Origin: Naegleria gruberi
Lineage: Eukaryota
Strand: one strand, 5' to 3'
Assembly: GCA_000004985.1 (NCBI GenBank)
Contig: GG739539.1
DNA length: 1,130 bases
Under the pieces are notes generated by a model. That model made no database searches. It had not been told where the DNA came from and saw nothing but the letters and a program-made list of their open reading frames with translations. Positions within the stretch are counted from its first letter, which is position 1, and each line of letters opens with the position of its first letter. This document shows, piece by piece, positions 579 through 770 of the stretch. A program made the translations under genes and the position numbers.

Positions 579-770
579 TCTAAACCCCATCCACAACCCT
601 ACTACCACCGACTACAACCCTAATTTCCCCCAACTTGTTTCCGAAAATAACTGAACGATTTTCCAGAAATTAATCGAATATCAGCCCATAATCGCCTGAC
701 CGTTTTAGTTCAGTGTTAGTTGGTTGGTAGTCGGTTGATTGTTGGGTAAAGGAATGAAATTGGTGGGTAA
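579..770. repeat. Long imperfect dyad with strand-composition switch. A G-depleted C/A-rich block (579-636, one G in 58 nt) and a C-depleted G/T-rich block (712-770, one C in 59 nt) are symmetric about ~671. They share a perfect complementary 9-mer core, ACCGACTAC (607-615) / GTAGTCGGT (727-735).
   Basis: This is read directly from the sequence. The left block is ...ccccatccacaaccctactaccaccgactacaaccctaatttcccccaac... and the right block is ...gttagttggttggtagtcggttgattgttgggtaaaggaatgaaattggtgggtaa.... The lone G (610) and lone C (732) are the residues that would pair with each other in the core. Flank complementarity around the core is ~70% with indels. The palindrome ATTAAT (669-674) sits at the centre. 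Confidence 0.55.

Follow-up and report, generated by a model that had tools for sequence, protein, structure and literature searches.

A degenerate 11-bp tandem repeat in two orientations as the probable source of a compositional mirror between two convergent genes in Naegleria gruberi

The stretch of DNA studied here, which we call the window, comprises 1,130 nucleotides of Naegleria gruberi (contig GG739539.1) with a G+C content of 37%. It contains an intergenic spacer between a gene for a Sel1-repeat protein on the left and a convergent open frame on the right, and in this spacer a G-depleted and a C-depleted block face each other like mirror images. The original prediction read these blocks as the two arms of a long imperfect dyad. 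Our results indicate that positions 547–876 probably represent one degenerate 11-bp tandem repeat of about 30 units which fills the spacer. We estimate the probability of this explanation at roughly 0.65, a figure that applies to the explanation as a whole, i.e., to the tandem tract, its unit variants, its surviving CpG dinucleotides, the history proposed for it and a tract devoid of a selected fold. The 11-nt periodicity had been overlooked in the original prediction; once it is recognized, the skew of the blocks, their paired exceptional bases and their apparent symmetry are explained.

The periodicity is evident from several counts. Autocorrelation of the spacer (542–949) yielded z = 9.0 at lag 11, z = 7.6 at lag 22, and z = 4.8 at lag 33; no comparable periodicity at these lags was present in the coding flanks, and the spacer gave no signal at lag 7. 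Taken separately, 700–770 reached z = 4.7 at lag 11 and 767–876 reached z = 8.2 at lag 22, while Tandem Repeats Finder reported a period of 11 at 717–745 and 767–845 and a period of 22 at 789–855. The pattern ATTCRGTN4ATTCRGT occurs seven times where 0.05 occurrences are expected. Each unit begins with a core, A[T/G]T[C/T][G/A]GT, its last four bases being variable, and in a single register the forward units read AGTTGGTTGGT, AGTCGGTTGAT, TGTTGGGTAAA and, farther downstream, ATTCAGTAACC, ATTCGGTTATT, ATATGGTAAAC, ATTCAGTGACT, ATTCGGTGAAC, and ATTCAGTTTCT. Exact ATTCRGT cores are found at 784, 795, 817, 828, and 839, and AGTCGGT cores at 729 (plus strand) and 603 (minus strand), with tails such as AACC, TATT, GACT, GAAC, TTCT, TGAT, and GGTA. 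The array is diverged, the identity at lag 11 being only about 56%, and the information per column amounts to 1.0–1.3 bits at columns 1–3 and 6 and to 0.09–0.6 bits in the tail. Two unit variants are present, both of them in both orientations: a G/T-rich variant (AGTYGGTKGNT, “G-type”) with at most one C per unit, and an ATTC-type variant consisting of ATTCRGT and an A-rich tail. At 789–855 the cores ATTCAGT and ATTCGGT alternate, resulting in the higher-order period of 22 nt (77% matches vs. 64% at period 11).

The orientation of the units was mapped by calculating the in-phase identity of a segment to the array at 702–876, with the shuffled test segment as the control, and this revealed three runs separated by two orientation switches. 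The first run consists of two forward units (GTTATAGTTGG and TTTTTAGTTGG, 547–568, direct-repeat family D3), which begin 6 nt past the stop codons of the Sel1 gene and match the array in the forward (z = 4.4, 0/300) rather than the reverse orientation (z = 1.0). It is followed on the minus strand by approximately 12 reverse units at 569–701, the reverse complement of which matches at period 11 with z = 7.1 (0/300). This second run includes the G-depleted block as well as ATTC-type units at 641–701. The part containing the block (575–640) matches as the reverse complement at period 11 (z = 3.3, 1/500) and in no other way, i.e., neither in the forward orientation (z = −0.2) nor, reverse complemented, significantly at periods of 9, 10, 12, or 13, and 569–640 on its own gave z = 3.0. 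The segment 641–701, the supposed loop between the two arms, also matches as the reverse complement (z = 5.7, 0/300). The third run, of about 16 forward units, comprises G/T-rich units (AGTTGGTTGGT, AGTCGGTTGAT, TGTTGGGTAAA, and others) at 702–766, recognized from lag-11 autocorrelation, Tandem Repeats Finder and the registers, and ATTC-type units (ATTCAGTAACC, ATTCGGTTATT, ATTCAGTGACT, ATTCGGTGAAC, and others) at 767–876, recognized from Tandem Repeats Finder, the pattern count and lag 22. The remainder of the spacer (877–949) is AT-rich and non-repetitive, and in neither orientation does it match the array in phase (z = −1.5 and −0.3).

The compositional blocks themselves are real. Base counts confirmed exactly that the 58 nt of 579–636 hold a single G (G610) and the 59 nt of 712–770 a single C (C732), and both blocks do sit between two convergent frames, which are 408 bp apart. 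At most one G over at least 58 nt was encountered in 3 of 2000 dinucleotide shuffles of the whole window and in 17 of 2000 of the spacer only, and at most one C over at least 59 nt in 275 and 21 of 2000, respectively; the two runs jointly occurred in none of 2000 dinucleotide shuffles. Depletion of C is not confined to this block in the window: a coding run of 60 nt (60–119) is free of C. In terms of the repeat, the C-depleted block is a forward run, and the G-depleted block a reverse run, of the G/T-rich variant.

It had been argued that the compositional mirror, the symmetric placement of the blocks and the pairing of their exceptional bases could not together be due to chance. This holds for the skew, as the shuffles indicate, but the symmetry and the exceptions follow from the 11-nt repeat. 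Cross-correlation of the blocks revealed that their three best inverted registers are offset by exactly 11 nt, with axes at 655, 660.5, and 666, and there is, consequently, no single centre of symmetry; the placement around approximately 671 is just one among several equivalent registers. A single axis is also incompatible with the finding that the supposed centre at 641–701 itself consists of reverse-oriented units. The palindrome ATTAAT, proposed as the centre of the dyad, occurs three times in the window, and the copy at 669–674 lies within a reverse unit (ATTCGATTAAT on the minus strand) with its axis at 671.5, compared to 671.0 for the 9-mers discussed below. Beyond composition, the complementarity of the two blocks is weak (local alignment, p ~ 0.04; longest exact match, p ~ 0.095).

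Some other properties of the blocks were considered as well. A pair of a G-quadruplex and an i-motif was rejected: four C-runs are present in the C-rich block only, one loop would be 18 nt long, and no more than two GGG runs occur in the G-rich block. Coding potential was also rejected, as only open reading frames (ORFs) of 26–41 amino acids are present. The C-rich block contains short telomere-like matches (CTAAACCC, AACCCTA, and AACCCTAA, at 580–587, 595–601, and 616–623), and a single TAACTGA heptamer is located at 648–654 within the reverse units; all these matches are short enough to be expected by chance in DNA of such composition.

The relation between the blocks is thus indeed inverted, and in phase at period 11; the hairpin that had been deduced from it did not survive. 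According to the original prediction, the C/A-rich and G/U-rich blocks would pair into a long stem with G-U wobbles, acting as a structured noncoding RNA or as a 3′-end processing or termination hairpin shared by the two genes. In a variant of this idea, the distal G-rich block of each transcript would aid R-loop-assisted termination, and it is true that the transcript of either gene would reach a C-rich block first and a G-rich block second. Folding of 570–780 as minus-strand RNA gave a minimum free energy of −59.6 kcal/mol, which is unusually low compared to global dinucleotide shuffles (z = −2.60, 1/200); the plus-strand RNA (z = −1.48) and single-stranded DNA (z = −1.18) were compared in the same way. 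However, in global shuffles the bases of the C-rich and G-rich parts are blended, so that composition is tested as much as sequence. When every block was shuffled in place, by which the compositional mirror is kept, the signal was erased: the folds (z = −0.57 for the plus and −1.12 for the minus strand) and the energy of the arm-to-arm duplex (z = −0.13 and −0.87) did not exceed those of the controls. Likewise, z lay between −0.8 and −1.5 for the entire tract (547–876), which thus folds no better than its controls. The presumed loop is made up of repeat units, and many alternative registers exist. Rfam searches with E-values up to 10 yielded no family in the spacer, apart from one chance match to mir-200 (E = 9.4), and only sub-threshold small nucleolar RNA and microRNA noise across the window; a scan for transfer RNA and transfer-messenger RNA found none. 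Terminator-like sites, i.e., a GC stem followed by a T-run, were absent from the spacer. Judged by the refutation that the original prediction itself had named, the hairpin fails, and a specific wobble stem, and with it a structured RNA or a shared termination hairpin, is highly unlikely. For blocks of this kind, the proper control for folding is a shuffle that retains local composition.

The promoter scan returned fewer promoter-like sites than were found in shuffled sequences. A replication origin was rejected as an alternative, as only one DnaA-box-like sequence with 7 of 9 matches (CCATCCACA) was found and both an AT-rich unwinding centre and an initiator gene are missing.

The paired exceptional bases require a separate explanation, and this is provided by the distribution of CpG dinucleotides. 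The observed/expected ratio of CpG is 0.90 in the tract, compared to 0.06 in the Sel1 part, 0.18 in the right-hand frame, and 0.35 in the window as a whole; 11 of the 13 CpGs of the window lie inside the tract, and the coding flanks have an excess of TG and CA. Most of these CpGs are phased with the repeat: the four forward ones all fall at one phase, and four of the seven reverse ones have a phase in common. C732 belongs to the CpG at 732–733, which has the same phase as those at 798, 831, and 853, and G610 belongs to the CpG at 609–610. The two 9-mers holding these bases, ACCGACTAC (607–615) and GTAGTCGGT (727–735), are perfectly complementary, as had been reported, and it was rightly remarked that an inverted 9-mer is by itself no surprise, exact ones being present in every shuffle. 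A position weight matrix built from independent metagenome arrays (see below) found exactly two sites in the blocks, i.e., AGTCGGTTGAT at 729–739 on the plus strand (score 6.1) and AGTCGGTGGTA at 603–613 on the minus strand (score 8.0), and these coincide with the complementary 9-mers, which contain the best-kept G-type core of the forward run and the best-kept core of the reverse run, respectively (AGTCGGT in both cases). According to a hand count from the unit lists, about 24 of the 30 units have CG, TG, or CA at positions 4–5 of the core. Most units now have TG or CA where the CpG would have been, and these are the dinucleotides that decay of a CpG is expected to leave. The ancestral core may have been ATTCGGT or AGTCGGT, and decay of its CpG would have removed the sole C from most G-type units, leaving one survivor in each run. 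That C732 and G610 fall in a complementary 9-mer would then follow from their position in the CpG that has survived in the best-kept unit of each run.

This phase-locking of CpGs in a CpG-poor locus may be a mutational curiosity, or it may be a hint of selection on the core. The latter is implied by what we consider the main rival to a decaying tandem repeat, a functional phased array of protein-binding sites in which an ATTCGGT core recurs every 11 bp, i.e., about once per helical turn, and thus places all sites on one face of the DNA. The two orientations would form two arms, and the array might be coated by a DNA-binding protein, possibly a methylation-sensitive one, in the manner of ParR on parC centromeres, of iterons, or of boundary elements. 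Strict 11-bp phasing over approximately 330 bp, the better conservation of the core columns than of the tail, and the retention of CpGs at one phase against CpG-depleted flanks are all in line with this. However, uneven conservation of the columns would equally be expected if different unit variants had been amplified, there is no promoter to regulate in a convergent spacer, and the window holds neither a candidate binding protein nor a par, rep, or regulator gene, its flanks consisting of the Sel1 gene and a frame that lacks a homologue. We regard such a binding array as possible, but unlikely.

For the decaying repeat, the following history can be envisaged. The array may have originated by replication slippage or unequal exchange, after which an internal segment of 133 bp (569–701) would have been inverted or inserted in reverse. 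The tract would carry neither a selected RNA or DNA fold nor any function, and it may have been tolerated because a convergent spacer presumably holds no promoters. Apart from the minus-strand folding energy mentioned above, several observations weigh against this account. Firstly, the unit variants are arranged in the order reverse G-type, reverse ATTC-type, forward G-type, forward ATTC-type. A simple palindromic duplication and a clean in-phase inversion are both at odds with this order; the two schemes were therefore rejected, and any one-step history is a guess. Secondly, two of the five reverse G-type units (with ATTAGGG and AGTAGGG) have an A at the former C position, and CpG deamination does not account for these units. 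Thirdly, the survival of CpGs at a fixed phase in a diverged array could reflect selection on a TCGG core instead of neutral decay. Finally, no homologous locus or second copy was found in the collections searched, which leaves copy-number variation and neutrality unsupported. The similarity of one reverse segment to a forward one (the reverse complement of 636–679 vs. 795–839, 33 of 44 matches) is significant against mononucleotide shuffles (p = 0.002) and marginal as segmental homology once the shared periodic profile is taken into account (p = 0.065).

Oppositely oriented arrays of one unit are also what a decayed foldback-type or miniature inverted-repeat transposable element (MITE)-like insertion with arms of short tandem subrepeats would have left behind, either in the spacer or in an existing array. 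The forward units that bracket 569–701 agree at 77% of positions over 22 nt (family D3), which may count in favor of such an insertion. However, the arms are only some 40–44% identical in phase (the best ungapped pair reaching 73% over 22 nt) and fold no better than controls, the order of the unit variants is mirrored around no axis, no target-site duplication is evident, and no second copy was detected in the plasmid, phage, viral-contig, and metagenome-contig collections searched. We consider a transposable element of this type very unlikely.

Close relatives of the window were not found. Searches for an exact 20-mer in viral contigs and an exact 24-mer in metagenome contigs gave zero hits each, blastn of the window against plasmids and phages returned nothing, and neither did a search of viral contigs with both proteins of the window. 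Arrays built on the same core turned out to be widespread: three ATTCRGT cores at a spacing of 11 nt, used as a search motif, were present in at least 120 contigs from metagenomes and in 33 viral contigs. In a blastn comparison of the window with contigs L001–L200 (the viral contigs L201–L233 being left out), only the array at 767–845 matched, and only to other arrays; for 579–770 there was no match in this set. The four free tail positions are non-random in the metagenome arrays, reading TGTC, GGTC, or AGTC in 30 out of 62 arrays and GAAC in 8. Both this recurrence of the core and the preference for an NGTC tail would also be in keeping with a binding array, but the genomes carrying the metagenome arrays lack CpG depletion, and their kinship with the window is unproven.

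The arrays with an NGTC tail occur on densely coding contigs of 29–57% G+C, where they form intergenic, near-perfect arrays of 5–20 copies with the consensus ATTCRGTNGTC (e.g., L125 5009–5232, L120 10424–10614, L094 6828–6966, and L113 516–651). These contigs are Bacteroidales-like; L125 encodes an isoleucyl-tRNA synthetase that shares 80% identity with its counterpart in Bacteroidales metagenome-assembled genomes. In 14 of 23 cases the array starts at most 40 nt from the stop codon of a co-oriented gene; with antisense stops, this applies to 2 of 17 cases (p = 0.003 in Fisher's test, with genes called by an ORF heuristic). Irregular alternation of A and G in the core is also present inside perfect metagenome arrays, such as that of L125 (5009–5232). 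The arrays with a GAAC tail (L086, L096, and others) occur on sparsely coding contigs with long satellites, telomere-like heptamers or octamers, and a PIF1-like ORF, which are probably eukaryotic. At L086 2016–4760, 64 copies of ATTCAGTGAAC are accompanied by approximately 78 copies of the G-rich 11-mer GGGTCAGGAGG, runs of a TTTAGGG-like heptamer, and the PIF1-like helicase ORF, and L096 1086–1150 consists of (AAAACCCT)8; these arrays probably represent subtelomeric or satellite DNA of a eukaryote.

The tract shares features with both groups. With the NGTC arrays it has in common the period of 11 bp, the ATTCRGT core, the alternation of A and G, and a start just past the stop codon of a co-oriented gene (6 nt in the window), and 8 of 11 positions agree when its G-type units AGTCGGTTGAT and AGTCGGTGGTA are compared to ATTCGGTTGTC and ATTCGGTGGTC. 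However, none of its tails reads NGTC or NGTT, and it is a degenerate tract of about 30 units, in contrast to the short and near-perfect NGTC arrays. Its ATTC-type units, with tails such as GAAC, AAAC, and AACC, are 78–79% identical to the GAAC arrays of L086 and L096 over 73–79 nt, and the unit at 828–838 is the very 11-mer found in these two contigs. Array-bearing contigs have CpG observed/expected ratios of 0.64–1.1, compared to 0.35 for the window, and none of those examined is CpG-depleted. We have, therefore, assigned the tract to neither group, and its homology with the environmental arrays is unproven.

Oppositely oriented runs of an ATTCRGT-core 11-mer, an arrangement like that of the window, were encountered in L118 and L101, which supports the tandem-repeat explanation. 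In L118 (6780–7070), forward and then reverse runs of the GTCATTCAGTA type, about 50 nt apart, lie within one spacer of a gas-vesicle cluster, bounded by a GvpL/GvpF-DnaJ gene and a gene for a CDC48-like AAA ATPase. In L101, inverted GATTCGGTRGA arrays (758–905 and 1355–1530), located directly after a cation-efflux gene, flank an 87-amino-acid gene of family PF05635 (23S rRNA intervening-sequence protein) in the way that terminal repeats would, which may be counted in favor of the transposable element considered above. Homologous PF05635-type ORFs are found within about 50 nt of an array in six loci (L101, L095, L097, L140, L155, and L189), and in four of these the array is upstream and co-oriented. 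Eleven viral contigs with 46–49% G+C (L202, L203, L206, L207, L210, L221, L223, L225, and L231–L233) carry a conserved triplet of phased sites, ATTCGGTCARG ATTCGGTTGAG ATTCGGTTNNN, that looks like an operator or iteron set.

No description of ATTCRGTNGTC arrays was found in the searchable literature, and exact-string searches with rotations of the units retrieved only primers and unrelated sequences, and no paper in which these 11-mers are reported as repeats. One could imagine that ATTCGGT-core arrays form a functional and so far undescribed class of phased binding sites, placed after stop codons and sometimes as inverted pairs, and common to environmental Bacteroidales, other prokaryotes, and the host of the window. 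In that case the core would have been kept by selection, and the window would represent an old two-armed member of the class, with the skewed blocks as its footprint. We find a class of this breadth doubtful. Nevertheless, the wide distribution of ATTCRGT 11-bp arrays, their tendency to start after stop codons, and their occasional PF05635 neighbors may deserve the attention of specialists, as may the phase-locking of CpGs in the window.

The genes on either side of the spacer are only partly contained in the window. On the left, at 8–541 on the plus strand, lies the 3′ part of the Sel1-repeat protein gene (Pfam PF08238, E = 3.6e-36, four repeats), which encodes the C-terminal four repeats of the protein and is closed by a double stop, TAA TAG, at 536–541. 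Its closest database relatives are 38–44% identical (38% in a protein search and 44% for GTDB genomes searched by back-translated peptides). An in-frame TGA at 5–7 lies within clear Sel1-repeat homology (F*KSFEYCNKAAESGH...), and the first start codon after it is found only at 74 (TTG). These features point to an intron with its 3′ end at the AG at 9–10, to a pseudogene, or to recoding. Genetic code 4 is disfavored for this frame by three TGG codons and by the lack of any further in-frame TGA, and read-through of its stop with a ciliate code was rejected because too many in-frame TAA/TAG codons would be required. On the right, the 3′ end of an open frame occupies 950–1129 on the minus strand, with its stop codon at 950–952 and sixty codons open to the edge of the window. 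It shows codon-like autocorrelation peaks at lags 3, 9, 15, and 21 and encodes an acidic C-terminal tail (...LLDMESDGADLYSDNGQSDSEEAQQL*); searches with it among 5.8 billion proteins, in Pfam, and in the viral contigs returned no homologue, family, or relative, respectively.

Among known systems, some resemble the tract in single features only. Eukaryotic Foldback transposons possess inverted arms built of short tandem subrepeats; here as in the window, two runs of a short tandem unit adjoin each other in opposite orientations. The arms in the window are, however, poorly complementary, their subrepeat order is unmirrored, and neither a target-site duplication nor other copies were found. In the parC plasmid centromere of R1, ParR binds to 11-bp direct repeats that are arranged in two sets of five, and such centromeres and iteron arrays share with the tract direct repeats phased at 11 (or 22) bp in two groups. 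In contrast, the groups in the window are inverted and amount to about 30 units, with no par or rep gene nearby and no blastn match to plasmids or phages.

The bacterial intergenic heptamer direct repeats are the nearest described analogues. The cyanobacterial short tandemly repeated repetitive (STRR) heptamers belong to these related short intergenic repeats. TAACTGA direct repeats occur between genes in Beggiatoaceae, Cyanobacteria, and Bacteroidetes, mostly just upstream of start codons, and are spread over distant lineages with a function that is unknown (MacGregor, 2015; PMC4679880). The heptamers and the tract have in common short, strand-asymmetric tandem units in intergenic DNA that are oriented relative to the neighboring genes. 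They differ in unit length (7 vs. 11 nt) and in position, as the tract of the window follows a stop codon, and the window contains TAACTGA only as the one isolated copy.

Intergenic minisatellites, or variable number tandem repeats, are formed and degraded by replication slippage. The tract resembles them in its head-to-tail units of constant length (11 bp), a 22-bp higher-order period, divergence between units, and a location in a non-coding spacer. What sets the tract apart from these are its two orientation switches and, in a locus otherwise poor in CpG, the retention of CpGs at a fixed phase. Even so, it most likely behaves as an ordinary decaying minisatellite. The main value of the study lies in a correction: a compositional mirror with the look of a designed hairpin can be traced to a strand-asymmetric tandem repeat that has decayed and is present in two orientations.

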